Virus record (IMG/VR): IMGVR_UViG_3300037485_002668
Coordinates: 35,245-99,244 of that record
Reading direction: 5' to 3' (one strand)
Length of the DNA stretch: 64,000 bases
Source: a virus
Positions 1-31,307 of the stretch are shown piece after piece (the first letter of the stretch is position 1; each line of letters starts with the position of its first letter). A program made the position numbers and the translations under genes. The notes under the pieces are model-generated. The model was not told where the DNA came from. It worked only from the letters and a program-made list of their open reading frames with translations, and ran no database searches.

Positions 1-292
1 CACGGCCTTCACATTGCCACATGAGACCCGTAGACCAATCCAAAATTACTTTAAAATTGTTTGGCAATATTTCAACTTTATAAAAATGCTGGCGGTCAGG
101 GGCGTGGGGATAGTCGTAATAATCGAATATTTTCAACTGGTCGATTTCAATCCGTACCTGGTGGTTTGATAGTTTATCCGCGACATGGCGAACTTTCATG
201 GGTGGCTGATAGTCGATAAAATTCAGGATGCCGCGGGTCATGAGATCACGGCTGATTAAAAAATCCAGGGAAGCGGTGTCATAACGAATCAT
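1..292 (-). CDS. Partial ORF running off the left edge; probable DUF1566 (Lcl-type) domain protein
   Basis: Manual translation from ATG 292: MIRYDTASL...NNFKVILDWSTGLMWQCEGR. The V.D..TGLMWQ motif is typical of the start of DUF1566. Confidence 0.55.
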   Translation of the reverse strand, partial: MIRYDTASLDFLISRDLMTRGILNFIDYQPPMKVRHVADKLSNHQVRIEIDQLKIFDYYDYPHAPDRQHFYKVEILPNNFKVILDWSTGLMWQCEGR

Positions 293-295
293 TTT

Positions 296-727
296 TTATT
301 GCCTTTCAATTACAAGTCCATACACAAAAGCTGGCGGGGGTGCGGGATTGGTATTTCTTTTAATAAAGTCTTCAATTTCGGCGGGTTGGTCGGAATAGAC
401 GGTCACGCGGCCATAGTGTATACCCCGTTCGGTAACGGGTTTATTTTCGAGCGTCCAGTAAACCATATAATTATCATAAGCGGTATATTCTGATTTACGA
501 TTGGGGTCATAAGCCCCTACCGCAGCCGCCGATAAAACAGGCGGTTTACCGTATATGACAGGGGGTCTTAAATCGAAATTGTGCGTGGCAATATCTTCGT
601 AAACATGCCAGGTGCAATTGGATTCTAATTTTAATTCCCAGGTATCAGAGTCCGGGGCAGACTTTTGGTAAAGATAAAAATGAACGCCGCCGGTACAGTC
701 GATACATTTTAGAAGTTTTTGAGTCAT
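296..727 (-). CDS. Hypothetical tail-region protein
   Basis: ORF track 296..763; likely ATG at 727, just after a repeat copy. Confidence 0.6.
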   Translation of the reverse strand: MTQKLLKCIDCTGGVHFYLYQKSAPDSDTWELKLESNCTWHVYEDIATHNFDLRPPVIYGKPPVLSAAAVGAYDPNRKSEYTAYDNYMVYWTLENKPVTERGIHYGRVTVYSDQPAEIEDFIKRNTNPAPPPAFVYGLVIERQ

Positions 728-734
728 GACCTTG

Positions 735-772
735 GCCTCACAGTCATCCCTCCCCACGGGCAAGCCGTGTGG
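735..772 (-). repeat. 37-bp junction element, copy 1 (degenerate box)
   Basis: Plus strand GCCTCACAGTCAT-CCCT-CCCCACGG-GCAAG-CCGTGTGG. Confidence 0.8.
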
Positions 773-781
773 TGATGGGGG

Positions 782-1972
782 TTACCAGACGTTTTCTTCG
801 TCCCATTGCCAGCCACCGGTGAGGGCGGAAACTTTTACACGATTGGTGTCGCCGAACTGACGTTCAATTCTCCAGATTAGGGCTTTCGTAAAAGGTATCT
901 GAGGATTGCCAGTTTCGATGGTACAGGTATCACCGATGTCGGACATGAGATCAACTAATTCACATTCAAATTCCAGCAGGACCAGACCGTTTTTGTAAAT
1001 CGAATAGGCACGCTTGGCGGTCTTGAGCGCCTGGCTGGAAGAAACGGATTGCGTAAATTCATCGCCGCCCATACACCAAAAGCTGCGGGCATCGCCGTCA
1101 ATATCATCAAAAAATGCCAGGTATGGGTCGGCAGTCAGGTCAGCGCCCGCGGCATAAATATCGGAACTGGTATCCAGGCAATGCAAATCTTCACTGCCGC
1201 CAACGATACTGACCAGATTGTTGTTGACACTTTTGCTATGCAACGAATGCAAGCCAGGGGCGGTCGCATCCGATGAACAATTACAATCAGACTCAGAACT
1301 GAAAGTTCCGTCAAAATCATTATTATCCGAATCAAAGACAGCGTTATTTTTGGCAATCACCGTGCCGGTATTCGCGCCATTTACACGGATACCGTAACTG
1401 TTCAGGTAGACGGTATTGTTGTAAATATAGGCGGTGTGACAATCTTCGATATTCACACCAGCTCCGTTATGATTATAAATAAAATTATTGTAAAGGCGAA
1501 CATTGGCATCCGCATGGTCAATCCAAATGCCGTGACAGGTATCCACCCGGTCGCCATAAAATAAATTATACGCGATTAGAACTTCGGAAGCGGCGCCTGA
1601 ATTTTCCCACCAGATACTATAGTGACTGGCGTCCACATCGGTCGAATCAAATGCAATGCCTTCAATGCGGCAATAGTTGGTGAAATTTTTAATCGTATAA
1701 CCGTTGATGCCGGTGTAATTAATCGTGAACCCTGTGCCCGCGGTACCCGTGTGGCGCTCAGCCGTGGGGGTATAGACGCGGGGGTAACGGGTAGCATCCA
1801 CGACCCATCCGTTCATCATAAACGATTCATTCAGCACCGAATCGTTATAACAAGCGGCCTGCTCAATCGTATCGGCGGCAACCAGGTCGCCGTTTTTAGC
1901 CGCTTCCCAGAGAGTCAGCGTGGCGTAATTGCGGCCGGCGGAACCAACCGTGCTGGTATTGACCGTGGGCAT
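782..1972 (-). CDS. Right-handed beta-helix (pectin-lyase-like) tailspike domain fused to a tail-hub-like C-terminal segment
   Basis: Asn-rich YNN(T/F)(I/V)Y repeats; domain ends GDARSFWCMGGDEF; last ~85 aa resemble a tail hub C-terminus. Confidence 0.65.
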   Translation of the reverse strand: MPTVNTSTVGSAGRNYATLTLWEAAKNGDLVAADTIEQAACYNDSVLNESFMMNGWVVDATRYPRVYTPTAERHTGTAGTGFTINYTGINGYTIKNFTNYCRIEGIAFDSTDVDASHYSIWWENSGAASEVLIAYNLFYGDRVDTCHGIWIDHADANVRLYNNFIYNHNGAGVNIEDCHTAYIYNNTVYLNSYGIRVNGANTGTVIAKNNAVFDSDNNDFDGTFSSESDCNCSSDATAPGLHSLHSKSVNNNLVSIVGGSEDLHCLDTSSDIYAAGADLTADPYLAFFDDIDGDARSFWCMGGDEFTQSVSSSQALKTAKRAYSIYKNGLVLLEFECELVDLMSDIGDTCTIETGNPQIPFTKALIWRIERQFGDTNRVKVSALTGGWQWDEENVW

Positions 1973-2709
1973 TAGGGCTTCTCCGTGACAATATTTTTCC
2001 GCAAGGGGACGTCAAAGCGGGGCGGCATCGAAACCCGTTGATCCTCAATGACTTCCTGGAAACGGGTGGTATTGGAAAATTTATAATCGGCCTGAATGCG
2101 GGTAATCAGGCTTTTGAAAGCTTGCGAATCCGTGGCGGAAGTGGCCAGGTTTTGCAAGGTACGATTCGTGTTCAAATGCTGGCGGTAATTTATTTTAAAC
2201 TTGCGGTGTTTGGCGGCGTGGGGTTGACGCAAGGCTTTAATTTCTTTTTCATCAGCGAATTCAGCATCGGGAATATACAAGACCAAAAATTCCCGCAAGT
2301 CATTTTTACCATGGGATTTGGATTTTAAAAAATGGCGGGTCGGGTCCAGGTCGCTAAAGATTCGCAGCGCGCCGAAATGTGTTAATAAGTCGGGTTTCAC
2401 TTTTTCCAAATCCAGGGGGGCGCGCCAGCGGTCAATGGGGCGGTAATGCGGGAGCGCGGGCATGTGGCGAAAGGGGACGGCGGGGCGCGGCACCAGGTGG
2501 TAGGTTTTGTCGATTTCGTAAAAGTAAAAGCGCTGGCAATATTTATCGAACAGGGCGGGGACGAAGGGGATTTCCAGCGCGGGCGGGGTGGTGCCGCGGA
2601 TTAGCATGTGCGCCCAATCGCGAAGGATATCTGTGTCGGAATAGACTTCGAGAATATCGCCGTCATCGTAGACGGGGGAGTCGGAAATTTTCAGGACTAG
2701 TTCGGCCAT
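1972..2709 (-). CDS. Hypothetical protein
   Basis: ORF; ATG 1 nt after the repeat box. Confidence 0.6.
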   Translation of the reverse strand: MAELVLKISDSPVYDDGDILEVYSDTDILRDWAHMLIRGTTPPALEIPFVPALFDKYCQRFYFYEIDKTYHLVPRPAVPFRHMPALPHYRPIDRWRAPLDLEKVKPDLLTHFGALRIFSDLDPTRHFLKSKSHGKNDLREFLVLYIPDAEFADEKEIKALRQPHAAKHRKFKINYRQHLNTNRTLQNLATSATDSQAFKSLITRIQADYKFSNTTRFQEVIEDQRVSMPPRFDVPLRKNIVTEKP

Positions 2710-2710
2710 G

Positions 2711-2747
2711 GCTGTCAATCATCCTTCCACCCAGACAAGCTGGGTGG
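2711..2747 (-). repeat. 37-bp junction element, copy 2
   Basis: GCTGTCAATCAT-CCTT-CCACCCAG-ACAAG-CTGGGTGG. Confidence 0.95.
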
Positions 2748-2755
2748 TGGGTTTT

Positions 2756-2792
2756 GCTGTCAATCATAATTCCCCACGGGCAAGCCGTGGGG
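2756..2792 (-). repeat. 37-bp junction element, copy 3 (tandem with copy 2)
   Basis: GCTGTCAATCAT-AATT-CCCCACGG-GCAAG-CCGTGGGG. Confidence 0.95.
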
Positions 2793-2796
2793 TGGG

Positions 2797-4278
2797 TTAG
2801 TTGTTGATGCCGGGGCAAAAAAGGGTTTGGGATTTCTTTTTGCCGTACAGCTTGTAACTGGCGTTGGTTATGTCCGTTAGCGGCCAGGTCTTGACGGCGG
2901 CGTGTTCACGGGTGACATAATCGAACGCATATTCTACAATAAATTCGTTAATAAACTGGTCGTGGCCTACCAGCGGGTTGGTGATCACCGTGGGCGTCAG
3001 GGCGGCCAGACCAAAGTCCGGGTGAAACAATAACAGGCGCAACTTACCGCTTAACATTTGACCCATCTGCGCCAGGGAGTGAGGCAACACGACCAGCAAC
3101 GCTTGCATAATCGTATGCGGCTCATCAAAAGACAACGTAATCGTATTCGTTTTATCGGTATGGTACGCTTCATTGAATGAATAGTCCAGGGTGGTTTCAT
3201 CGGTGACGCCGGTGCCGCCGACATCGATATAATCATCGGCCAGGCCGGCGTAATCGCTGAGCAGTTCGTAAATAATTTCGGCGACGGTCTTGGCTTCGAA
3301 ATTAGCCGAAACCCGAAACGTCAGCACATCCCCTTCGGTGGGGGAATTCCAATCGGCGGCGGCGATTTTAATTTGCGAATCCGTGGCATCGGTCACATCA
3401 TAAAAATCGGCCAGAGTGGAACCGTTATTGGAATAATCGTTGGGGCCTGTAATTTGGAACGTAGAACCGCCTGCGCCCAGGGTGATCGTCCATTCGCCTA
3501 CGTACGCGCCCGTATAGACCGTGACTGCGTCCAGCGAAGACAGCGCGCCATCGTTCCACGTGAAACTGGTGACCAGGTGACCAGAGTTACTGGCGCGTAG
3601 CGTGGGCGTGGGACTGCTGGCGTAAATGCGCACGGGCTTATCGAAAAATTGCGATAGCAGATTATCCACCCGCAGCACCGCTTCCTGGCCTGTCCAGACA
3701 AACGGTTCGCGTACCAGACCTTTAAACACCGTGAGGGAATTGGCGTTACCGTCCAGGCGGAGATTCACCTGCACTAAATTGTTGGTAATGGGAAGCGTGG
3801 CCACCATGGAACCCGTGGCATACGTGGCACCCAGCGCGCCCACCCAGCCGATTTGATTGGCGCTGGCGGACGTTAACGTAAACGATTCCAGATTGTCGCC
3901 GTCCGTAATGGTGACTACATCGCCAATGGCAAACGTACCCAGGCCGGCGTTTAAGTCCATGGGGTTATTGGTACTGGCCTCGGCGGTAATGCGTTGAATG
4001 CGTTTGAACTTCGCGCCTGAGCGACCGGTGAAACTGGCGTAATATTCATTCGGGTCGGAAAAGACAATTTCAATATCCTGGAGAATAACTTCACCGCTGA
4101 AGGCGGGGTCAATTTCAATTTCGCCCGAAATTTGCGAAATGGTACGCACGCCTTTGACGCCGTTCAAAGTGATATTTTCACCATCGGGATCTAAAATCAC
4201 TTCCAGGTAAGGCTTGGCCCCGGCGGGGTTTTCCAACAACGTTTGCCAGCCGACGGGCAGGGAAGTTTTTGCGGGCAT
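2797..4278 (-). CDS. Tail tip / baseplate hub protein, apparently C-terminally truncated
   Basis: Position after TMP and distal-tail gene; hub-like segments (VAEIIYELLSDYAGL; INEFIVEY...YGKKKSQTLFCPGI). Confidence 0.65.
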   Translation of the reverse strand: MPAKTSLPVGWQTLLENPAGAKPYLEVILDPDGENITLNGVKGVRTISQISGEIEIDPAFSGEVILQDIEIVFSDPNEYYASFTGRSGAKFKRIQRITAEASTNNPMDLNAGLGTFAIGDVVTITDGDNLESFTLTSASANQIGWVGALGATYATGSMVATLPITNNLVQVNLRLDGNANSLTVFKGLVREPFVWTGQEAVLRVDNLLSQFFDKPVRIYASSPTPTLRASNSGHLVTSFTWNDGALSSLDAVTVYTGAYVGEWTITLGAGGSTFQITGPNDYSNNGSTLADFYDVTDATDSQIKIAAADWNSPTEGDVLTFRVSANFEAKTVAEIIYELLSDYAGLADDYIDVGGTGVTDETTLDYSFNEAYHTDKTNTITLSFDEPHTIMQALLVVLPHSLAQMGQMLSGKLRLLLFHPDFGLAALTPTVITNPLVGHDQFINEFIVEYAFDYVTREHAAVKTWPLTDITNASYKLYGKKKSQTLFCPGINN

Positions 4279-4700
4279 TACGCAACCCTCCCGAAAAAAT
4301 GCAACTGCGTTTCGTACCGGGCGGCGCGGCGGCCATAGGTGATAATTTCCATATAGTTCGGGTCGAGAATCATATCCATGTACGTGCCGGCGACCTCCAG
4401 GTAACGGTAATAGACGCGGACTTTATAATTGTTCGCAATGACGGCGCGGACTTTTGTTAAAGTGGACAGATATTCGTGAAAAATATCCAAGTCCAAGCGC
4501 CAATGTTCACGGTTACTGGCGGCGGCGGAAACCTTAGTGGGGTCATAAAGCGTGGGGTAAGCGTCATTCGTTTCAAGCGTGAACAGATTATTGACCGTAT
4601 AAATCTGGGCGGCGTTAATTTCCATTTCGTCAAAATCGTAGGCGGTACCCCAGGCGGCGCCGTTATAAAGTTGAATGCGGGTAACGTTGACGGCAGGCAT
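4278..4700 (-). CDS. Putative distal tail protein
   Basis: 140 aa, directly downstream of the tape measure gene. Confidence 0.5.
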   Translation of the reverse strand: MPAVNVTRIQLYNGAAWGTAYDFDEMEINAAQIYTVNNLFTLETNDAYPTLYDPTKVSAAASNREHWRLDLDIFHEYLSTLTKVRAVIANNYKVRVYYRYLEVAGTYMDMILDPNYMEIITYGRRAARYETQLHFFGRVA

Positions 4701-7700
4701 TATGACCTCCCGAAACTGGTGACAGTGGTAATATTTTTCGAGCGGTCACGATACCAGCGTTCGGATTTCTTTTTGAACTCCACCCAGGCACTCGGGTCGC
4801 CGCTGTGAACGATCACATCGAAATTCAGGTCCACGTTGGACGTGGCGGGTTTGGCGTTCGGGAAAACGTTGGGGTCGCCCGTGGAAATGAACTGACGCCA
4901 GTTGGGTTCGGGGTATTTGGAAACCACGCCTTCAGGGATTACGACTTCGTTGCGTTTTAGTTTGGCGATAACTTCATCGGCGGCGATAAGGCCGGTGTGG
5001 GCGGTGACATCGTAGCCGAAACCGCCGGTATGGAGTGGGGGCGGGGTTGGCGGTGGCGTACCGTTATTGGCGGCGGCCAACCACTCCATTAATGCCTGAA
5101 GTTGAGCGTAAGCCTTAGTTAAATCCAGGTCAATTTCAATTTTCTTTTGATTATATGTATCAATTAAAGTATTTAAATCATCTTCAAGCTTTTTTAATTG
5201 ATTCTCAAATTCAGTAATTTCTAAATCGATTTCAAGTTGTTTGTTGTTATAAGTGGTATATAGTTCGTCTAACTTTTTCTTGAGTGCTTCGATTTGGTCT
5301 ATCGCTTCTTGTTTAACAGCATCTTTGGCCGCGTTTTCATCCAGGACACCGCCAGCATCGGTAAATTTTTTCTTTAATTCCTCAAGTTGCGCCGCCATGT
5401 CTTTATACGCCTGGCTGTTTGGATCGAGCGTAGCCAGAAAGTCTTGCATTCTGAAAATCATGGCGTTAATTTGTTCGTCTGCGCCAGTGGTATTGAAATC
5501 GATTTTAAAATAAGTCAGTTTATCAAGCGCCTTAGTGGCAGTATCAAAATCGGTAGAAAATTGGTCGTAATCGGCAAAAAGCGTATCCAGCATTTCACCC
5601 CAGTTAATTACCAATGCGTGCGTTTGGCCTGAGATACCTTCGAGCAACTTTTGAATTTCATATAGATTAGGCGGTGTATTACTTCCCATCCGTGCTAAAA
5701 TTTCATTTAATGATTTTACATTAGAAGTTATTTTTGCACGGTCAATTTCAAACGCATGTGTCAGTAAACTTTTTTCTTTTAATTTATCAGTAATGCTTTT
5801 TTGAATATCCATAATTTGAAATTCAATTTTTTCACGATTGGCATTGAATTCTACCTCAAGACTAATTTTCTCTTTTTCTAAATCCGCTATGGTTTTATTC
5901 AAATCAGTAATGGCAGCCTCTACTTTATTTTTTAAATCAGCGGCCATTGAATTTAATTGTAGATTGTTTGCGATTAGCCACTCGTTTAGCGTTCCCTGAT
6001 AACCGTTCATGACGGCTAAAGCGTACTGAGCTTTGTAAATGTTATCGGTCAGGTCTTTGTACGCTTGCGACTGGGGATCGAGGGTTGCCAAAAGTGCTTG
6101 ATTGTCAGCAATTGCCGCTTGCAAATCCGCAGTCATTTGTGGAAATTGAATATTTCCATAATAATTTTTCAATTCCAAAGCTTTTTCCGCTAACGACCCG
6201 AGTCCCGTAATTTGCGATGTAACAGCATCCGCCAACTCCGTAGTTAAACCACCGGTCGCGGCAGTTGCAGCAAGTAATTGTTCTACCAGAGTTTGTAAAG
6301 GTTCGGCTGCATTATTTAGTGCTAAATTGTTTTCCAACAACCATTCGTTCAAAGTCCCCTGGTAACCGTTTAAAACCGCCACAGCGTATTGCGCCTGCAT
6401 AATCGCATCCGCCATGTCTCTATATGCTTGTGACTGTGGATCCAATGTAGCCAGTAAGGCTTGATTTTGCTGGATGGTGTTCAACAAATCGGTTTCGATA
6501 GTCATGTTCGGCATTTCGCCAAAATATTTTTTCAGACGAATTGCCTCTTCCGCCATACTGGTTAAGCCAGTCAGCGAGGAATCAAAAGCCGCGCCTAATT
6601 CAGCGGTAATCCCGGTGGTCGATTCAACAGCGGCTTTAAATTGATCCGCTAACGTTTCTATCTGGGCAGCCTGATTATTCAGGTGTAAATTATTATTTAA
6701 AAGCCACTGATTGAAATCACCCTGGAATCCGTTCATAACTGCCAGGGCGTATTGTGCCTTATAAATATTGTCAGCTAAATCGCGATAAGCTTGTGACTGT
6801 GGGTCCAGCGTAGCAAGTAACGCCTGGTTGTTTGCGATTGCGGCTTCCAAATCTGCTGTCATTTGTGGAAACTTAATATTCCCGTAGTAATTTTTAAGCT
6901 CTAAAGCTTTGTCGGCTAATGATCCAAGCCCGGTGATTTGAGAAGTAACCGCATCTGCCAGTTCAGCGGTCAATCCACCAGTGGCTGCAGTAGCCGCCAG
7001 TAGCTGGTCAATCAAAGTTTGAAGTGGTTCTGCTGCATTGTTAAGCGCCAGGTTGTTTGCTATTAACCATTCGTTCAGCGTGCCTTGAAATCCATTCATG
7101 ACGGCTAAAGCATATTGCGCTTTATAAATATTATCAGATAGGTCTTTATATGCCTGAGAAGTTGGATCTAACGTAGCTAAAAGTGCTTGGTTGTTGGCAA
7201 TAGCCGCCTCCAGGTCTGCGGTCATTTGTGGAAATTCGATGTCGCCAAAATATTTTTTCATTTCCAGTGCACGATCAGCCAGGTCACCAAGACCTTTCAC
7301 TGTGTCTTTAAACTGATTCCCTAACTCTTCAGTCAAACCAATCCCGAGCTGGAAAGCATCCACAAATTGTTCCTGGAAAGTTTGGACAGCGGCAGTCGTG
7401 TTGTTTAATGTAATATTGTGGAGTCGCAAGTATTCGTCTATACTGGCAACTTCACCACGTGCCACAGCCAGTGCGGCCTGGGCTTTCCAGATTTCATCTT
7501 GTAAATCACGGTACGCCTGAGACGTGGGATTCAAAGTTCCCAGTAAAGCTTGGTTGTCCGCGATAGCTTGCGCTAAAGCTTGTTCCATTTCGCCAGTCGG
7601 CATGTTAAAATATTCTTTTACCCTTAACAATTCGTCTGCCAAAGAACCTAATCCCTGACGACTGGAATCGAAAGCGCTGGAAAGTTCGGAAGTCAAACCA

Positions 7701-10700
7701 GTTATGTCAATCGATTCCAAAAAATTGGCGGCTAGTTCATGTAACGCTGCGAAGGTAGCTTCCGCCCCGTTAGCCATGGCATCTAAAACTGTTTTGGTAG
7801 TGCTTAGTGTGATATTATATTTTGTGAAATATTCGTCTATGGAACCTACTTCACCACGCAATACAGCTAATGCCGCTTCCGATTTCCAAATGCTATCTTG
7901 AAGTTCACGATATGCCACTGAAGTTGGATCAAGCGTAGCCAGCAATCCTTTGTTGTCAATGATCGCTGCTTGCAAGTCACGTTCCATGCTGGGAAATTTT
8001 ATATCACCAAATTTCGCTCGCAACTGAACGGCGTTATCGGCTAAATCTGTCATCCCCTTTTGTGACTTTTCGAAGGCACTCAGCCAATCACCTGAAAGTA
8101 ATTTGCGCCCGGCTTTTTCAAATTCTTCCCCCATCTTCTCAGCATCCTGTGCAATCTTTTGTTTCTGCATCCCCTCATTTAATTCCGCTAATTTGGCGGT
8201 TACCCAAACCAGTGCATCGCCAGAAAGCACCCCACTGTCACGTAATGCTTCTAATCCGGAGATTTGTTCCCGTAATGGCGCGCTTGAATCTAAAAGTTTC
8301 CCGTACAGACCATCCAGTTTATCCATTACTTGCTGGTATTCATAAGATCCGGCTTGCAATTTAGGTAATAGTTCGGAATAGGCGTTGATTTGTTCCATTA
8401 CGCCATCGGTTGTTTCAATGCCCAACTCAGAAAGTTTTTTCAAAAGTTCCTGGTGTTCGGTAAGTTGAACATTCGATTGACTTAGCTTTTCACGTAATTG
8501 GTCAATCGCCATCATGACATTTTCATATTCAATCGAATCTTTACTAAGATTCGCGGCCACGCCTTCCAGCATCTTGATTTGATCCGCTAAAGGCGTATCC
8601 GATGCCGTCAACTTCTGAATAAGACTATTAATATTTTCGGTTGCAACCTGATATTCAGCGGAACCGATTTGCATGGTAGTCGCTAAGGCGTACCACTGTT
8701 TTATCTGTTCGTCAATTGGTGCATTTGAATCGACCAACTTACTAAGCGCCTGGCCAATTTTATCATAAAGTTGACGGTATTCGTAAGAATTTACATCCAA
8801 TTGAGCGGCCAGTAACGTCCAACTTTGAACTTGTTTTAATACCGATGCCTGGGTTTCAACGCCTGCCGCATCCATTGCTTCGTTAAATTTTTCCTGAGCG
8901 GATTTTGCTTTTTCTATTACCTCGCCGGTATTATTTAGCTGTAAATTATTCGCCAATAGCCAGGAATTGAATTCACCCTGATAGCCATTCATGACCGCCA
9001 GGGCATATTGAGCTTTGAAGATATTATCAGCTAAATCTTTATACGCTTGAGATGCCGGATCTAAAGTAGCCAAAACAGCTTGATTGCCCGCAATCGCAGC
9101 TTCTAAGTCAGCCGTCATTTGTGGAAATTTTATATCACCATAATAGTTTTTCATTTCGATGGCTTTGTCCGCCAGAGAACCCAGGTCGGTTATTTGAGAT
9201 TTGACGGCATCGGCTAAGGCGGTGGTAAGGCCACCTAATTTTTCAATTGATTCCTGAATACTATCGGCAAAAGTCTTTTGACCTTCAGTGGCACGTTCGG
9301 ATGCATAGTTAGCCGCTAACATTTCATCACCCGTACCTTCGACCCGAATCGCTAAATTTTCAAACCATTGTTCCGTACTGGAAACTTCACCCCGTAAGAC
9401 TGCCATCGTTGCCTGCGCTTCCCAAACCTGGATAGTCATTTTTTTGTAAGCATCGGAAGTTGGGTCCATGGTTGCAAGCAAGCGTAAATTCCCCTGCACG
9501 TTTTCATTTATTAAATCAGCCAGTCCCTTTTGACCCCAATCGGCCTTGCCGAATTGTTCCTGATTCTTTGCCGCAACGTCAATTAAATATTGCAAGTCTT
9601 CAGTGGCTTTGGTAAAACTATTATCAAAAGTAAAGGCGCGGGTTAACCGTTCCAATTCAGCCGTGTTGTTCTTTAGTTTATCGGTAAATTCTTTTTGGAT
9701 TTTTTCGCCTAAATCTTTAAAGCCTTCACCCATGTTTTTCATGTTTGCGCCAATGGTAACCATTACTAAAAAGGCTTGATTGGTATTGTTCAGACTGGTC
9801 AATAGTTTTGATTCAAAATCATTGGCAAGGTTATTTACTAATTCGTCAAGGGTTGTAATTTGCGTACCTAAATCACCCAGGCTGTCTTTCATATCATTGA
9901 CAGTAATTCCGGTTTTTTCGGCGGAACCGCCTAACACATCCATCAATAATGACGCGGCTTGCAATCCCAAAGAAACAGGATCAAGGCCGCCTTTTAAAAA
10001 GCCAGTTACTGTACTTGTTAATAAATCGACCGCCTTAGAACCCGTATCACCTAAGCCTAAAAACTTTTTCGCAACGTCACCGATTTGACCGGCGTATTCA
10101 GTCCAGTCTTTTGCGCCTTTCTCCGATTTTTGTGAAAGTCCCTCTACCTGTTCCTGGCTAATCCCCGCCTGAGCGACAAAAGCCTCCCAGCCTTTGGTAT
10201 CGCCAATTTTTTCGTAAAGCGATTTGATATTACCTAAAAGTTGTTTTTCACCATAGGCATCGCCCAACTCTTTGGCAACGGGTATCAACGCCGCCTGATT
10301 TGCAATCTGTTCGCGAACGGAAGAGGTTAATTCGATACCGGCATCGGTTAACATTTGAAGCCCAGTCTTTTGAGCATCGATAGCACTATTTGACCGATCC
10401 ATCTCTTCCATTAAGGAAACGATTCGATCCTCGACCATCTGATAACCAGTGGAGCCCTCCACCAATTTAGAACGAACGTCTTGTAATTGGGAAATTTGTT
10501 TTTCAATAGGTGCATTGGTATCAACAACCTTATCAATAGTTTCTTTTATTTTTTTGGTTAACTGGTCGTAATAGCCTGAACCCTTTTCAACCTGATCTGA
10601 TAAGGCTGAAAATTTATCGATTTGTTTCGTATTGTTTTCTAATAGGTCAACACCTGCGTCACTAAGTCCTTTGATAAGCAATTCCTGTTTCGATAGGTGT

Positions 10701-12904
10701 GGATTGACCATGCCTAATTTTTCATAAAGTTCATTCAGCTTATCGTTAATCTGTTTCTTAGCCGCAATATCATTCCCGTAAGCTGTGTATAACCGTTCAT
10801 AAGTTTGGACTTCCTTTTGAACTTCTGAAGATAATTTTATATTTGATTCTTTTAATAAATCCTGGGTGGAAGTCATCTTTTTTATCGGTTCAACGGTATC
10901 GCCGACTTTAGTTTTCAAATCATTTATTTGCGCCGTCAATTGGTTGTAATCATACGTACCTTTTTGAACCTTGTCACGCGCGACTTCTAAAGTAGTTATT
11001 TTATCCCGTAAAGATTTTTCAGATTGAATACCAGCGTCGGCTAATGCTTTTTCAGCGCCCGTAAGCTGGTCAATTTCCTTTCGCATCGCTTCGGCTTTAT
11101 CGGTAGCTTTTTTCAGGTCGGTAGCAAAAGCGCCTGCATTACCCATGGCCACGCCAAAACCGACTTTCATCGCCCGCAGCCAGGAGTTGCTCGGTTCAAT
11201 TTCCTTTTGAATCTGGTCTTCAATCTCTTTGAGTTGCGTTTTTAGACGTTCCGTTTCGATTTCACGAAACGCCCGTGCAATGCCTGCCAGACTCATTCCA
11301 TACTGGTCAACGTTGATACCAGACTCTTCTAATTTCTTGCGTAAAGCTTCCGTAGTTTCGGTATATGCCGCCGTCCCCTCTTTGGTAGATTCAAGTTTTT
11401 TACCGAGCGCCTCAACCGAATCTACGTTGTCGGAAGTAGCATCGATTTCAGCAAGCATCGCCTGGTATTGACGTTCAAGGGCAGCGCTAAAAATAGCATA
11501 GACCGCGACCACAGCTCCGACTCCAATTGCCAAAGAACCGAGACTTGCACCGGATTTCCCAAGTGCCTCATTTACTGGTGATAGTTTATCTTTTAAGCCA
11601 TCAAAAGCTTCTTTCAACACGTCGACTGTTGCTTTGCCGGTTTCCCATGCTTTTTTAAAAAACTGAATTCCACCGGTTAATGCCACTATACTTCCAACTG
11701 ATATTGCAACTGCTTTTAAGGCTGCGGGATGTTCATTAATAATAGTAAGGGTTTTGTTAATTGCAGGTAAAAATTGACTGCCGAGAGTTATGGCCAGGTC
11801 ATTGACAATTACTTTTAACCGATTGAATTGAGCTGTGGTAGTTGCGCTTCGTACCGCGAATTCAGCGGCTAAAGAGGAATTTTCAGAATAAGAGGTAGCA
11901 CTATCATCTAAAGCTTTTTTGAATAAGTCAACCGATCCGGCACCCTTAAGAAGTGTTTGGCTAAGGCCGGCACCAGTATATCCAAGCTTATCTAAGGCGA
12001 CCATGCTGTCTTTACCCGATGCCTTTAAACCCTCAAGAAAAGTTATAATAGTACCAGCAGCGTCTTTTTCAAATGCTCTTTTAAATTCAGCACCCGTCAT
12101 TGTACCAGCAGCGGATGCCTTGCCGGCAACATTCGCAAGTTCCTCCAACTTGGCGCCGCCTTTGGCTACGGCAAGGGACATATCCATAACCAATTTTGAA
12201 AAAGCGGTGCCGCCTAATTCAGCATTCATCCCCGTACTGGCAAGTGACGCTGAAATTGCCAAAATTTGTTGTTGTGTAATCCCTGCCTGAGCGCCAGCGC
12301 CAGCAAGACGGCCGGCAAAGTTCATGATTTCGCCTTCGCCGGCGGCCGATGCCGCTCCCAACGTATTAACCGCCGATCCGATTCGACTTATTTGTTCCGC
12401 CGCTGACATGCCCGCCGGTGCGACCCCACGGGTAACGTTAACAAACCGCGCCATAGATTCGGAAGCCTCCTCTACGGACATATCGGTAGTTACGCCCAGC
12501 ATGGAAACGGTTTTGGTAAAGCCTAATAAATCCGAATTGGCGATACCTAGCTGACCGCCGATTTCAGCGATCCGGTTTAATTCGTTGACAGAAGTTCCCG
12601 ATTCAATTGCCAGTGAACGCAAACCATCCTGGAGTTTTTGACCGGCATCAGTTAATTTACCGGTGGAATCCCGTACCCCGTCAACTGTTTTAGCGACCCC
12701 AGCGAAAGATTCCTCAAATTTAGCGGCGGCTAAAATACTGCCGGTAATAGCTCCAGCCGTAGCAAGCATAGCCACGTTTAACACGGTATTTAAAGTTTGG
12801 GCGGTTTTGGAAGTATTGTCCTGAACCTTTTTTAATCCAGAAGAAAAAGTATCGGTTCCTTCCAGGCTTATGCGTGCAACGATATCGGTAACGCCACCAA
12901 ACAT
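4700..12904 (-). CDS. Tail tape measure protein (TP901-type core) with ~121-aa internal repeats
   Basis: 2734 aa, Ala/Leu-rich helical; N-terminal FEESFAGVAKT...AELGGTAFSK core; nine LAT(L/M)DPxSxAY-type repeats. Confidence 0.95.
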   Translation of the reverse strand: MFGGVTDIVARISLEGTDTFSSGLKKVQDNTSKTAQTLNTVLNVAMLATAGAITGSILAAAKFEESFAGVAKTVDGVRDSTGKLTDAGQKLQDGLRSLAIESGTSVNELNRIAEIGGQLGIANSDLLGFTKTVSMLGVTTDMSVEEASESMARFVNVTRGVAPAGMSAAEQISRIGSAVNTLGAASAAGEGEIMNFAGRLAGAGAQAGITQQQILAISASLASTGMNAELGGTAFSKLVMDMSLAVAKGGAKLEELANVAGKASAAGTMTGAEFKRAFEKDAAGTIITFLEGLKASGKDSMVALDKLGYTGAGLSQTLLKGAGSVDLFKKALDDSATSYSENSSLAAEFAVRSATTTAQFNRLKVIVNDLAITLGSQFLPAINKTLTIINEHPAALKAVAISVGSIVALTGGIQFFKKAWETGKATVDVLKEAFDGLKDKLSPVNEALGKSGASLGSLAIGVGAVVAVYAIFSAALERQYQAMLAEIDATSDNVDSVEALGKKLESTKEGTAAYTETTEALRKKLEESGINVDQYGMSLAGIARAFREIETERLKTQLKEIEDQIQKEIEPSNSWLRAMKVGFGVAMGNAGAFATDLKKATDKAEAMRKEIDQLTGAEKALADAGIQSEKSLRDKITTLEVARDKVQKGTYDYNQLTAQINDLKTKVGDTVEPIKKMTSTQDLLKESNIKLSSEVQKEVQTYERLYTAYGNDIAAKKQINDKLNELYEKLGMVNPHLSKQELLIKGLSDAGVDLLENNTKQIDKFSALSDQVEKGSGYYDQLTKKIKETIDKVVDTNAPIEKQISQLQDVRSKLVEGSTGYQMVEDRIVSLMEEMDRSNSAIDAQKTGLQMLTDAGIELTSSVREQIANQAALIPVAKELGDAYGEKQLLGNIKSLYEKIGDTKGWEAFVAQAGISQEQVEGLSQKSEKGAKDWTEYAGQIGDVAKKFLGLGDTGSKAVDLLTSTVTGFLKGGLDPVSLGLQAASLLMDVLGGSAEKTGITVNDMKDSLGDLGTQITTLDELVNNLANDFESKLLTSLNNTNQAFLVMVTIGANMKNMGEGFKDLGEKIQKEFTDKLKNNTAELERLTRAFTFDNSFTKATEDLQYLIDVAAKNQEQFGKADWGQKGLADLINENVQGNLRLLATMDPTSDAYKKMTIQVWEAQATMAVLRGEVSSTEQWFENLAIRVEGTGDEMLAANYASERATEGQKTFADSIQESIEKLGGLTTALADAVKSQITDLGSLADKAIEMKNYYGDIKFPQMTADLEAAIAGNQAVLATLDPASQAYKDLADNIFKAQYALAVMNGYQGEFNSWLLANNLQLNNTGEVIEKAKSAQEKFNEAMDAAGVETQASVLKQVQSWTLLAAQLDVNSYEYRQLYDKIGQALSKLVDSNAPIDEQIKQWYALATTMQIGSAEYQVATENINSLIQKLTASDTPLADQIKMLEGVAANLSKDSIEYENVMMAIDQLREKLSQSNVQLTEHQELLKKLSELGIETTDGVMEQINAYSELLPKLQAGSYEYQQVMDKLDGLYGKLLDSSAPLREQISGLEALRDSGVLSGDALVWVTAKLAELNEGMQKQKIAQDAEKMGEEFEKAGRKLLSGDWLSAFEKSQKGMTDLADNAVQLRAKFGDIKFPSMERDLQAAIIDNKGLLATLDPTSVAYRELQDSIWKSEAALAVLRGEVGSIDEYFTKYNITLSTTKTVLDAMANGAEATFAALHELAANFLESIDITGLTSELSSAFDSSRQGLGSLADELLRVKEYFNMPTGEMEQALAQAIADNQALLGTLNPTSQAYRDLQDEIWKAQAALAVARGEVASIDEYLRLHNITLNNTTAAVQTFQEQFVDAFQLGIGLTEELGNQFKDTVKGLGDLADRALEMKKYFGDIEFPQMTADLEAAIANNQALLATLDPTSQAYKDLSDNIYKAQYALAVMNGFQGTLNEWLIANNLALNNAAEPLQTLIDQLLAATAATGGLTAELADAVTSQITGLGSLADKALELKNYYGNIKFPQMTADLEAAIANNQALLATLDPQSQAYRDLADNIYKAQYALAVMNGFQGDFNQWLLNNNLHLNNQAAQIETLADQFKAAVESTTGITAELGAAFDSSLTGLTSMAEEAIRLKKYFGEMPNMTIETDLLNTIQQNQALLATLDPQSQAYRDMADAIMQAQYAVAVLNGYQGTLNEWLLENNLALNNAAEPLQTLVEQLLAATAATGGLTTELADAVTSQITGLGSLAEKALELKNYYGNIQFPQMTADLQAAIADNQALLATLDPQSQAYKDLTDNIYKAQYALAVMNGYQGTLNEWLIANNLQLNSMAADLKNKVEAAITDLNKTIADLEKEKISLEVEFNANREKIEFQIMDIQKSITDKLKEKSLLTHAFEIDRAKITSNVKSLNEILARMGSNTPPNLYEIQKLLEGISGQTHALVINWGEMLDTLFADYDQFSTDFDTATKALDKLTYFKIDFNTTGADEQINAMIFRMQDFLATLDPNSQAYKDMAAQLEELKKKFTDAGGVLDENAAKDAVKQEAIDQIEALKKKLDELYTTYNNKQLEIDLEITEFENQLKKLEDDLNTLIDTYNQKKIEIDLDLTKAYAQLQALMEWLAAANNGTPPPTPPPLHTGGFGYDVTAHTGLIAADEVIAKLKRNEVVIPEGVVSKYPEPNWRQFISTGDPNVFPNAKPATSNVDLNFDVIVHSGDPSAWVEFKKKSERWYRDRSKNITTVTSFGRS

Positions 12905-13450: not shown

Positions 13451-13487
13451 TCTGTCAATCAGTTAACCCCGCGGGCGAGCCGCGGGG
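13451..13487 (-). repeat. 37-bp junction element, copy 4
   Basis: TCTGTCAATCAG-TTAA-CCCCGCGG-GCGAG-CCGCGGGG. Confidence 0.95.
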
Positions 13488-28713: not shown

Positions 28714-29436
28714 TTAAATTTCCTGTGGTTCCTGTTTTAGTTGCGCAACGATTTGGAACTTTTCGATTTCGGAATTGCGGGGTTGTTGAAAATAGAAAAT
28801 ATCGTCTTCCCAGGGGATCGGGCGGCGGCGACCCACGCCACAAGGAAGTGGTTTGAACACGTCTTCAAAAGTACGGTGAAACAATGGTTCCGGATATTCG
28901 TTGGTATTCAGGCCGTCCAGGATTTCCGGGCTGGAAGTGCGATAGATGAATTCCCGCAGGAAATCGTGACGGATCCAAATCAGTGATTGTTCCGCCCAGC
29001 CGGGCATAAACGAAATCCCTTCGCCAAAACCGTAACTAATGGGGCAGGTTTGAAGGTACGGGATTAATTTTTCCACGCCCCAGACCAGACAATCCTGTTC
29101 AACGAATAACAGGTCGAAATGGTTCATTAAGGCGTATTGGGCGGCCATAATCAACGTGGCGTGGAAATCGTGCTGGTGGGGGAGTTGCTGCGCGTCCAGG
29201 TAGCCGGTGACGATGGTTTGGGAAATGGGCTGAAAGTATTTCAACGGCAACACGGGCGGAGTCGGGCAGTTGGAAACGTAAATGAAATAGTGCGCGGGTT
29301 TCAGCCATTTTTCCAGCGGGGGGAGCCAGTAATGGTTGAGCCAGTACGGATCCAGGCACTGTTGGCTGCGGTTGGGGTTGGCGTGGGCGGTAGGGGCGCT
29401 GAACCAACCGGTGGCGAGGAGGAGGTTTTTGAACAT
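28714..29436 (-). CDS. Putative GT-A fold sugar transferase-like protein
   Basis: LFVEQDCLV (DxD-like) motif; cargo context. Confidence 0.4.
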   Translation of the reverse strand: MFKNLLLATGWFSAPTAHANPNRSQQCLDPYWLNHYWLPPLEKWLKPAHYFIYVSNCPTPPVLPLKYFQPISQTIVTGYLDAQQLPHQHDFHATLIMAAQYALMNHFDLLFVEQDCLVWGVEKLIPYLQTCPISYGFGEGISFMPGWAEQSLIWIRHDFLREFIYRTSSPEILDGLNTNEYPEPLFHRTFEDVFKPLPCGVGRRRPIPWEDDIFYFQQPRNSEIEKFQIVAQLKQEPQEI

Positions 29437-29459
29437 AGTTTTTTCCTTCCATTGGTTTT

Positions 29460-29726
29460 TTAATCACCAATTTTTTCAGATATCTTTTTTAATTCGCCGG
29501 CAAACCATATAAATTCAGTATTTTTGGCTGCTCTGTCTTCCAGCATATTACTTAATATTTCTAGTTTTTGTTTTGCCCACGACAGCCGGTTCTTTCTCGA
29601 AATGTTTTTCGATAATTCAGTACTAATAAATTCAAATGCCCAGGATGGTATTTCAAAAAATCCGACTTCAGGAATTTTGTTTAAAGGATAGCCATAATTT
29701 CCGGGATAAAATTTGATAGTTTCCAT
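29460..29726 (-). CDS. Hypothetical protein
   Basis: ORF after a repeat copy, SD AGGA. Confidence 0.6.
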   Translation of the reverse strand: METIKFYPGNYGYPLNKIPEVGFFEIPSWAFEFISTELSKNISRKNRLSWAKQKLEILSNMLEDRAAKNTEFIWFAGELKKISEKIGD

Positions 29727-29743
29727 AATAATTCCTGTTTTTT

Positions 29744-29780
29744 GCTGTCAATCATCATTCCACCCAGGCAAGCTGGGTGG
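29744..29780 (-). repeat. 37-bp junction element, copy 7 (downstream of cysH)
   Basis: GCTGTCAATCAT-CATT-CCACCCAG-GCAAG-CTGGGTGG. Confidence 0.95.
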
Positions 29781-29804
29781 TGTGGATTAAATTTTTTTAT
29801 ACCT

Positions 29805-30548
29805 TCAAAGATAACTTCTGATTTCAGGACATTTCGTAACTAAAAAATTGAACTGCTCAGGATAGTTCCGTTTCAAAAACAGATAAAATCCACGCTCGCC
29901 AATACTTAAAATATACCAATTTACACGAATCCACTCACGTTCCGGAATCGTATTGGCTTTTAAATAAATCGGATGGTATTCGTAGTCCGAATGAGTTATA
30001 AAAGAAAAAATATCATTGGCGTCTAAATAGGCGACGGGATAACAACTAAAAGCCTTAAAAGATTTGTTAAAAAAATAAGTGCCATTGACGCCAATGGTCA
30101 TTTTACGGGCACGGCTTTCCTGAACCCGGATCCCGGTAATCACCAGGTCATATTCCTTGTTCGTATTCCACCAGGGTTTTAAAATTTCCTTATTGACTTT
30201 ATTAATCGCCGTCAAATCAAAATACCCGGCCGTTAACTTTGCAATCAAAGGGTCAATCTTGGGATTAATTTCCCTTAAATTAAAGCCCAATTTTTCAGCG
30301 GCGGCCTTTACAAATGAATCAGTTTCAGGAAATTCGTAACCACTATTGAACCAAACCAACTCAGGCGTAAGGTTCAACTGTTTACACAAAATCGCACAGG
30401 TCAAGGAGTCTTTGCCGCCGCTAAAAGACAACGCTATTTTCTGTTTATTTTTACTGGCATTCTCCAGGATCAATTTGGCCCGTTTTATTTTTAGCATGAC
30501 CCGATTATTTTGATAATTCATCAAATCGAATTGCGTAAATTTATGCAC
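29805..30548 (-). CDS. cysH: PAPS-reductase family (CysH-like) protein of type IV-B CRISPR-Cas
   Basis: SFSGGKDS PP-loop, GIRVQESRAR; adjacent to csf genes. Confidence 0.85.
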   Translation of the reverse strand: MHKFTQFDLMNYQNNRVMLKIKRAKLILENASKNKQKIALSFSGGKDSLTCAILCKQLNLTPELVWFNSGYEFPETDSFVKAAAEKLGFNLREINPKIDPLIAKLTAGYFDLTAINKVNKEILKPWWNTNKEYDLVITGIRVQESRARKMTIGVNGTYFFNKSFKAFSCYPVAYLDANDIFSFITHSDYEYHPIYLKANTIPEREWIRVNWYILSIGERGFYLFLKRNYPEQFNFLVTKCPEIRSYL

Positions 30549-30551
30549 GGT

Positions 30552-31307
30552 CTACGCCCTGGCCAATGGTTTCAACTTAGTACCCGCAGGATATGAATTT
30601 ACTGGCTTTGAATTTATACCATAATACGGCGGACAAATTGGGCGCATTTCTATAAAATCATTTTCAGGAAACCAGCCTTTTTGTTTACAATAATCGACAG
30701 GCAAAGGACGCATTAATTTATCATAACGCATTAATGCAAAAGACGAATTGCCATTTTGTTTTTCAATTTCCCAGGTACATTCACCCCAACCGACACTATG
30801 CTTTTTACCGATATGAGCGGGATTGGGGATTATTTTTTTCAGCAATTCGATATTGCCTTCGCCAAAAATTTTATAATGCTTACGGTCAGAATATAAAGTT
30901 GGCATCAGATACGATTTAAAATCGCCTTGTTGGACGGAAACGCGTTTTGCATTTACCGAATTTAATAGTCGCTTTTCAAAACGTTTAGTCCAGTAAGTTG
31001 ATTTTTCAGGCAAATCAAAGAGATAACTACACATATAAAAAAAAGTATCTTTAAACTGGACTTTAAAAAGTGGAATCGTAATGGGCACCAACTCATCATG
31101 ATCATAACTCAAATTGAAATAATCAGATTGCAATACGTAAAGCATGGTATAGTGTGCAATCACCGAATCAAACGCCAAAATATCATTGCCACTGCGACCT
31201 GTTTTAAATTCAAGATGAATGATAAAATTTTCATTCAGTGCGCTTTTACGGGTCAGATTATTCCAATTTTCGACTTTGTTTAAAATTGAAGGTTCTAATT
31301 TTCGCAA
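30552..31307 (-). CDS. csf3: Type IV Cas5-like RAMP (Csf3)
   Basis: LAFDSVIA, IGKKHSVGWG glycine loop, RPLP, RPICPPYY. Confidence 0.8.
   Translation of the reverse strand: MRKLEPSILNKVENWNNLTRKSALNENFIIHLEFKTGRSGNDILAFDSVIAHYTMLYVLQSDYFNLSYDHDELVPITIPLFKVQFKDTFFYMCSYLFDLPEKSTYWTKRFEKRLLNSVNAKRVSVQQGDFKSYLMPTLYSDRKHYKIFGEGNIELLKKIIPNPAHIGKKHSVGWGECTWEIEKQNGNSSFALMRYDKLMRPLPVDYCKQKGWFPENDFIEMRPICPPYYGINSKPVNSYPAGTKLKPLARA

Follow-up and report, generated by a model that had tools for sequence, protein, structure and literature searches.

Introduction

In phage lambda and in RcGTA, the domains of the tail-tip hub are distributed over two proteins, gpL and gpJ or gp13 and gp15, respectively, whose genes have other genes between them (PMC10721106). 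The intervening lambda genes are K and I, one hub sub-domain is common to both chains, and the cut falls between hdI and the hdII-insertion, with both pieces being dedicated tip proteins (PMC10721106). Here we describe the hub of a metagenomic siphophage encoded in a 64,000-nucleotide stretch of DNA, hereafter the window, that corresponds to positions 35245-99244 of IMG/VR record IMGVR_UViG_3300037485_002668, a virus genome of 99,244 bp that is complete and carries direct terminal repeats. Like lambda and RcGTA, the window appears to encode a hub core of the gp27/pb3 type on two separately encoded chains with genes between them. Unlike in lambda, the cut separates the final ~86 residues from the rest of the core, and these continue, in the same polypeptide, from the C-terminal end of an unrelated beta-helix; no sequence similarity of the window hub to gpL, the lambda protein with an Fe-S cluster domain, or to gpJ was detected with Pfam.

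The hubs T5 pb3, Mu gp44, T4 gp27 and VgrG are single chains. The window hub shares with them a four-domain fold and a gene position just downstream of the tape measure, but it lacks the final segment, which another protein would supply upon assembly. Characterized tailspikes attach by an N-terminal anchor domain. As with the P22 tailspike and the depolymerases of Klebsiella and Acinetobacter phages, a right-handed parallel beta-helix with weak structural matches to lyases and depolymerases is encoded among the tail-tip genes of the window; unlike in those tailspikes, the protein starts with the beta-helix and its presumed anchor, the hub fragment, is C-terminal. The arrangement also recalls evolved Dit and Tal proteins, in which a core tail-tip protein serves as scaffold for a carbohydrate-binding or carbohydrate-degrading module. 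However, evolved Dit and Tal keep their core intact and receive the module as an insertion or an extension, whereas in the window the core is cut and the module carries off a piece.

We propose that the hub gene underwent an inherited fission in which its C-terminal segment was grafted onto a beta-helix protein and docks in trans on the hub, a reading to which we assign a probability of roughly 80%. Two features are new here: where the hub is cut, and the attachment of the smaller piece behind an enzyme-like module, at its C-terminal end.

Two window proteins correspond to one contiguous hub

The open reading frames (ORFs) and segments concerned are the following.

2797..4278 (-), hub body, 493 amino acids (aa), ends PGINN*, equivalent to residues 1-488 of the contiguous hub P0020
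1972..2709 (-), 245-aa ORF (ORF245), ATG at 2709; its stop codon and the beta-helix ATG share 1 nucleotide (nt)
782..1972 (-), 396-aa ORF, beta-helix plus hub tail
1055..1972 (-), right-handed beta-helix module, residues 1-306 of the 396-aa ORF, sugar-enzyme-like
1043..1054 (-), four-residue linker TQSV from the beta-helix module to the hub tail, placed from alignments
785..1042 (-), displaced hub C-terminal segment, residues 311-396 of the 396-aa ORF, corresponding to P0020 residues 490-575

The C-terminus of the hub ORF reads ...YGKKKSQTLFCPGINN*. The beta-helix module ends ...GDARSFWCMGGDEF at residue 306, and past TQSV the frame reads SSSQALKTAKRAY...VKVSA...EENVW, with 1,754 nt between the hub stop and the first codon of the tail. 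By BLASTP, residues 1-488 of the 578-aa P0020 matched residues 1-491 of the window hub (38% identity, E 2e-96), and its residues 490-575 matched residues 311-396 of the 396-aa ORF (45% identity, E 4e-20). The two window pieces thereby map on P0020 with neither gap nor overlap. The same two-piece match was obtained with P0015, a contiguous hub to which the window hub is 44% identical (tail E 5e-17, BLASTP). When P0020 was used as query on the complete genome, it matched in two places only, with residues 3-491 at the hub ORF and residues 490-578 at the end of the beta-helix ORF.

As a non-circular test, a hidden Markov model (HMM) of the tail was built from 46 contiguous hubs only and scanned against the 774 six-frame ORFs of the 99-kb genome. 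The single match was to residues 311-384 of the beta-helix ORF (52.5 bits, E 1.8e-15), equivalent to E = 4e-9 when scaled to the library of 1.84 billion representative proteins that was covered by our profile search for the family (cut-off E<=1e-3). With thin profiles, hhalign found the tail at the same position (E 4.3e-5), and MAFFT placed the trans tails on the columns of the cis tails, with a common terminal (G/E)AW. Judged by these alignments and profiles, the resemblance of the 86-aa end to the part of intact hubs that follows PGI is far beyond chance. When the tail was compared by pairwise BLAST with the first three contiguous hubs, no match reached significance (E 0.6-1.6); closer contiguous hubs and profiles did give significant matches. 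A word-index search with the tail region alone returned the window's own protein only, and a tail-only alignment searched among longer proteins returned that protein and three contiguous hubs.

The profile search recovered 206 representatives of the hub family, the great majority of them contiguous. Local HMMs showed that all 106 family proteins in which body and tail were both detected join them within 30 aa, and that ~11 full-length proteins, along with the partial P0035, end at the junction. Among the best 150 of the 206 representatives, tail-only matches were confined to P0012 and P0153. The initial annotation of this locus had described the end of the hub, a tandem pair of elements after a 4-nt gap, the end of the beta-helix and the continuation of the frame, and all of these statements hold. 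It had also equated the end of the beta-helix ORF with the hub segment after PGI, to which the P0020 and tail HMM matches attest, and proposed a search for contiguous full-length homologs, of which P0020 and P0015 are examples.

The 493-aa protein is predicted to fold as a tail-tip hub

Searches of the 493-aa protein against Pfam and PHROG gave no match at E<=0.1, and PDB sequences yielded nothing relevant, with one match at chance level (E 1.3). No match was found by tblastn among 50,697 deposited phages, and a DNA search of the deposited phage collection was also empty. Because curated sequence families gave no match, membership among hubs is assigned at the level of fold only. Contiguous members of the family fall into three size classes: proteins of 577-614 aa consist of body and tail, those of 707-774 aa have in addition the 140-aa protein described below at their front, and those of ~1000 aa contain internal insertions. 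Seven close homologs of 493-533 aa (40-55% identity) all end at the same PG-x-x-x position as the window hub, and three more distant ones extend ~85 residues beyond it.

An AlphaFold 2 (AF2) model of P0020, built from a 57-row alignment, had a predicted local distance difference test score (pLDDT) of 92.9 and a predicted template modeling score of 0.90; the pLDDT of its tail part exceeded 90 except for the last ~18 residues (81-84). Foldseek matched this model to T5 pb3 (E 4e-13) and also to lambda gpJ, Mu gp44, T4 gp27 and VgrG, and VIA-align gave Z scores of 12-16 to lambda gpJ, Mu gp44, gp27 and VgrG (15-16 for lambda gpJ). In the VIA-align superpositions, compact solved hubs align from residue ~20 to residues 564-578 of the model (Mu gp44 3-346 and T4 gp27 4-369), and lambda gpJ 240-601 aligns onto model residues 326-576. 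The tail segment consists in the model of a helix (491-505) and four strands (510-516, 528-533, 538-551 and 557-564). Because solved hubs align through this segment, the family is, on the predicted structure, a tail-tip hub of the T5 pb3, lambda gpJ, Mu gp44 and T4 gp27 type, as the initial annotation had supposed, and the last segment lies within its conserved core. Consistent with this assignment, the hub gene lies close downstream of the genes for the tape measure protein (TMP) and a distal tail protein, as in the related loci L001, L004, L013 and L029. In T5 pb3, hdI and hdIV form a tube-like ring (PMC10038345). By its position, the ~86-residue segment probably belongs to the last hub domain, which is hdIV in T5 pb3.

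Conservation and origin of the split

Genomic context was available for four split loci, namely the window, L001, L002 and L007, which derive from different metagenomes. All four have the same order of hub stop, an ORF of ~250-280 aa and a ~400-aa protein with beta-helix and tail, and all four keep the tail at full length. Across the split loci, identities of the tail (45/30/40%) are close to those of the whole 396-aa-type protein (44/35/40%). These observations bear on whether the 86-residue end is a leftover of an insertion with no role in the hub; the truncated hub would then function by itself, and the beta-helix protein would be mounted at another site or would not belong to the virion. 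We consider this unlikely. In its favor, AF2 confidence for the tail on the beta-helix protein is low, with a pLDDT of 40-65 when the hub body is missing, a value that would also fit a segment in need of its hub partner. Against it, the segment is as well conserved as the rest of the protein, is more similar to a contiguous hub than is the hub body (45% versus 38% identity) and retains the terminal (G/E)AW motif of the family. Moreover, because the segment lies in the structurally conserved hub core, its loss should damage the hub.

In a maximum-likelihood tree of hub bodies, the 10 split hubs group together in a single clade (Shimodaira-Hasegawa-like approximate likelihood ratio test [SH-aLRT] 96) that is nested within the contiguous hubs; its sister is P0015, which is contiguous (SH-aLRT 85). 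Because of this nesting the split is, as read from the tree, inherited, old and derived. The core gene had been described as interrupted by ~1.75 kb, which agrees with the 1,754 nt measured and with the nested position of split forms; a recent event does not agree with an arrangement common to relatives that are only 42-55% identical. Homologs that end at PGI, an outcome that had been set against a split, belong to the split clade alone; other relatives continue into the tail, with the exception of P0018. This 494-aa protein, from a 2,311-bp ENA contig, ends ...APGI and is sister to contiguous P0020 (SH-aLRT 99). Either the same loop was split a second time, independently, or the gene runs off the end of its contig.

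It is highly unlikely that the split is ancestral and contiguous hubs are fusions, or that the split is an artefact of assembly or gene calling. Fusions of tail-tip genes are common, and the 707-774-aa relatives have themselves fused the 140-aa domain to the N-terminus of the hub. Nonetheless, the split clade is nested within contiguous forms, every solved hub among the structural matches has the equivalent C-terminal part on one chain, and the split recurs with intact ORFs in independent contigs from different samples.

A post-hub protein of ~135-160 aa follows in L001, L002 and all loci of the contiguous type; L007 ends before that position. L002 also has an extra 2.3 kb (L002:8519-10823) at the same junction of hub and ORF245 homolog, and the junction therefore tolerates further gene insertion. 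Within this DNA is a 474-aa ORF whose sequence motifs suggest a DNA methyltransferase.

The beta-helix module and the 245-aa ORF

Pfam matched the beta-helix module to NosD (E 1.2e-5) and Beta_helix (E 6e-5), and AF2 modeled residues 1-300 with a pLDDT of about 90. The best Foldseek matches of this model, all weak, were to a PL6 alginate lyase (E 1.3e-3, probability 1.0), pectate lyases and pectin methylesterases. With its function gauged from such matches, the beta-helix is probably a receptor-binding arm that binds or degrades polysaccharide. The helix begins at residue ~3, an N-terminal virion-anchor domain is absent, and the sole non-helix part of the protein is the C-terminal hub segment. 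Module residues ~10-306 also occur in unrelated viral contigs (L018-L026) with quite different C-terminal parts, and homology to these contigs stops at the same ...DIDG..R...W.IGADEY motif. Its presence in unrelated phage contigs would fit a module that moves between phages.

ORF245 had no match in Pfam, PHROG or PDB sequences, and the ESM Atlas returned nothing usable. Its homologs lie at L001 8509-9300, L002 10823-11647 and L007 ~1654-2457, and in all four split loci the gene stands directly upstream of the beta-helix gene. The beta-helix genes of other phages (L018-L026) are usually preceded by a small ORF whose N-terminal ~30 residues resemble those of ORF245 (MAELLIK...GD-I/V). Movement of ORF245 and the beta-helix together as a mobile two-gene cassette is suggested by this pattern but is not claimed here: the evidence is good for the beta-helix, but for ORF245 it consists of the ~30-residue N-terminal motif only.

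Hairpin elements at the split

Between the hub ORF and ORF245 lie two copies of a hairpin element, with a third downstream of the beta-helix gene.

2756..2792 (-), element copy 1: stem CCCCACGG/CCGTGGGG with loop CTTGC, then AATTA and TGATTGACAGC
2711..2747 (-), element copy 2: stem CCACCCAG/CTGGGTGG with loop CTTGT, then AAGGA and TGATTGACAGC; 1 nt before the ATG of the 245-aa ORF
736..778 (-), third copy, degenerate (65% identical to the reference copy), after the beta-helix gene and ahead of the following ORF

Four nt (2796-2793) separate the hub stop codon from copy 1. The element comprises an 8-9-bp G+C-rich stem, a CYYGY loop, ~5 nt and TGATTGACAGC(C), and its stems covary (CCACCCAG/CTGGGTGG, CCACACGG/CCGTGTGG and CCATCCGG/CCGGATGG). 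Across genome positions 34.6-96.8 kb there are ~24 copies, always on the coding strand, intergenic and just 5' of a gene; all are on the minus strand, and those other than the tandem pair (~22) lie, for example, at window positions 13451, 29744, 33198, 40248, 49148, 55640, 57028 and 61526. The element was not found in any related locus, and in L001 the gap from the hub stop to the following ORF is just 8 nt. On this distribution, the elements are best taken as a regulatory motif of the phage itself, present twice at an operon boundary, and as no signature of insertion; the insertion at the hub had been described as headed by repeats, a description that the genome-wide copies, the absence from related loci and the 8-nt gap in L001 all speak against. 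As a boundary of transcription or processing, the tandem pair would set off the TMP-hub genes from ORF245 and the beta-helix gene, and the element may be a phage-specific promoter, processing site or protein-binding site. A reading as sigma-70 promoters was rejected: TTGACA is present, but the copies read have no conserved -10 at 17 nt. In T4-like phages, promoter/stem-loop (PeSL) cassettes are short repeated intergenic stem-loops 5' of genes that sometimes flank shuffled modules. Unlike those cassettes, the window elements are not tied to the split, as relatives with the same split lack them.

Rejoining of the two pieces by splicing or excision, which had been offered as an alternative, is extremely improbable, whether through an intron, an intein or excision of the 1.75-kb block at the repeats, and so is rejoining by translational bypassing: the break is clean, with no residues lost, and repeats stand at the upstream junction with a degenerate copy downstream, but Rfam has no family in window positions 1-5000 at E<=1; there is no room for intein halves because the hub ends PGINN* with no N-intein block and a folded beta-helix, not a C-intein, precedes the tail; no endonuclease domain was found in ORF245 by Pfam, PHROG or Atlas; both ORFs in the block are conserved, have start codons of their own and are translationally coupled; neither the abundance of the elements across the genome nor the relatives that have the same split with no repeats at the junction fits excision; and the best-known translational bypass, that of T4 gene 60, skips about 50 nt compared with the 1,754 nt here.

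Neighboring genes

By the ORF list, the minus strand carries every gene in the first 13 kb of the window. In order of transcription these are the 2734-aa TMP, the 140-aa ORF, the 493-aa hub, the two elements, the 245-aa ORF, the 396-aa ORF, the degenerate element and a 155-aa ORF. Those that flank the split hub are as follows.

4700..12904 (-), tape measure protein, 2734 aa, from the ORF list; homologous TMPs precede the hub in L001, L004, L013 and L029
4278..4700 (-), 140-aa tail-tip protein, Dit-like by position alone; 1-nt overlaps with the TMP and hub ORFs
296..763 (-), 155-aa ORF, fills the slot of the post-hub protein of relatives and is not its homolog

The TMP, which is very long, contains many near-repeats of a ~150-residue unit (...LATLDP.SQAY.DL.D.I.KAQ.ALAV.NG...). 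A repeat-rich TMP of 2734 aa implies an unusually long tail. Overlaps of 1 nt join the TMP, 140-aa and hub ORFs, and likewise the 245-aa and 396-aa ORFs, which suggests translational coupling within each group.

The 140-aa ORF matched residues 27-147 of a 746-aa L004 protein (E 2e-15, BLASTP). This protein is encoded by a free-standing gene in the window and in some relatives and is fused as a domain to the N-terminal end of the hub in relatives of 707-774 aa; the loci compared with it were L004:6560-8800 and L029:5509-7668. It is distantly similar to the post-hub protein (E ~1e-3). On such resemblance, the distal ring may be composed of two paralogs, the 140-aa protein and the post-hub protein, in three copies each. 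The 155-aa ORF had no BLAST match to the post-hub family and no Pfam or PHROG match.

Discussion

A hub made of two polypeptides, as the initial annotation had envisaged, is the best explanation that we can infer for the window; the split and the graft that it described stand together with this two-chain assembly, and its repeat-headed insertion and its rejoining do not, nor does a recent date for the insertion. Most members of the family would make a single polypeptide of hub body and a ~86-residue helix-plus-four-strand segment. In the split clade, a block of DNA comprising the ~250-aa ORF and the beta-helix module would have been placed exactly in the loop before that segment. Consequently, the hub gene would stop at PGINN and the segment would be made as the final part of the beta-helix protein. 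As the tail tip assembles, the segment would most likely dock in trans on the truncated hub and restore the last hub domain. Docking would in turn tether one beta-helix arm per hub subunit, most likely three per tail, to bind or degrade polysaccharide.

Several points weigh against this fission-and-docking model. The binding of the two chains is something that we infer, and the low pLDDT of the isolated tail may be due to a shallow alignment, with 9 rows in those columns. For the assignment of the segment to hdIV, only the end points of the structural alignments were used. Of the split loci, no more than four have a known genomic context. Finally, the enzyme matches of the beta-helix are weak (Foldseek E ~1e-3), as is the hhalign match (E 7.5e-4, probability 25%) between ORF245 and the small ORFs found ahead of beta-helix genes elsewhere.

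A further protein of the same genome, encoded outside the window, has a related design. The 741-aa product of genome positions 28870-31095 (L015:8871-11096, minus strand) is a four-part chimera of an N-terminal ~175 aa, a paralogous beta-helix (29% identity to window residues 12-306, E 1e-8), a ~140-residue poly-Ser/Ser-rich linker and a post-hub domain. Its C-terminal domain is the sole genomic copy of the post-hub protein (E 4.5e-23). By its domain order the chimera seems to be another case in which a core module of the tail tip has received a beta-helix arm, which would strengthen the idea of a graft at the hub. More tentatively, and with somewhat less than even confidence, we suggest that this lineage generally gains surface enzymes when a movable beta-helix lands in frame upstream of a core tail-tip segment, cut or whole, and takes it as C-terminal anchor. 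This would have happened twice in this genome: with the last ~86 residues of the hub, where a conserved ring domain was split and would need completion in trans, and with the entire post-hub protein behind its poly-Ser linker. If so, both tail-tip rings would carry beta-helix arms, and the two chains of the split hub would complement each other as a natural pair. As a separate observation, P0015 (664 aa), the contiguous hub nearest the split clade, bears a ~75-residue Ser/Asp/Glu-rich extension after the terminal W of its tail that recalls the poly-Ser linker of the chimera.

The mounting of receptor-binding proteins and depolymerases on the tail tip largely sets the host range of a phage. The known modes of attachment are N-terminal anchor domains and insertion in an intact Dit or Tal; here the anchor would be a fragment of the conserved core of the hub itself. 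If this is true, the appendage is needed to complete the hub, and its loss would break the tail. Because the hub family is found in metagenomes only, with no match in the 50,697 deposited phage genomes, it marks an unstudied group of siphophages. For annotators, confirmation would warn against dismissing a hub that ends PGI-NN, or a beta-helix whose 86-residue end lacks an explanation, as a truncated or chimeric product of gene calling. The split hub would also provide a natural split-domain pair to guide modular engineering of laboratory phages, and would represent a new way to wire a spike onto the tip of a siphophage.

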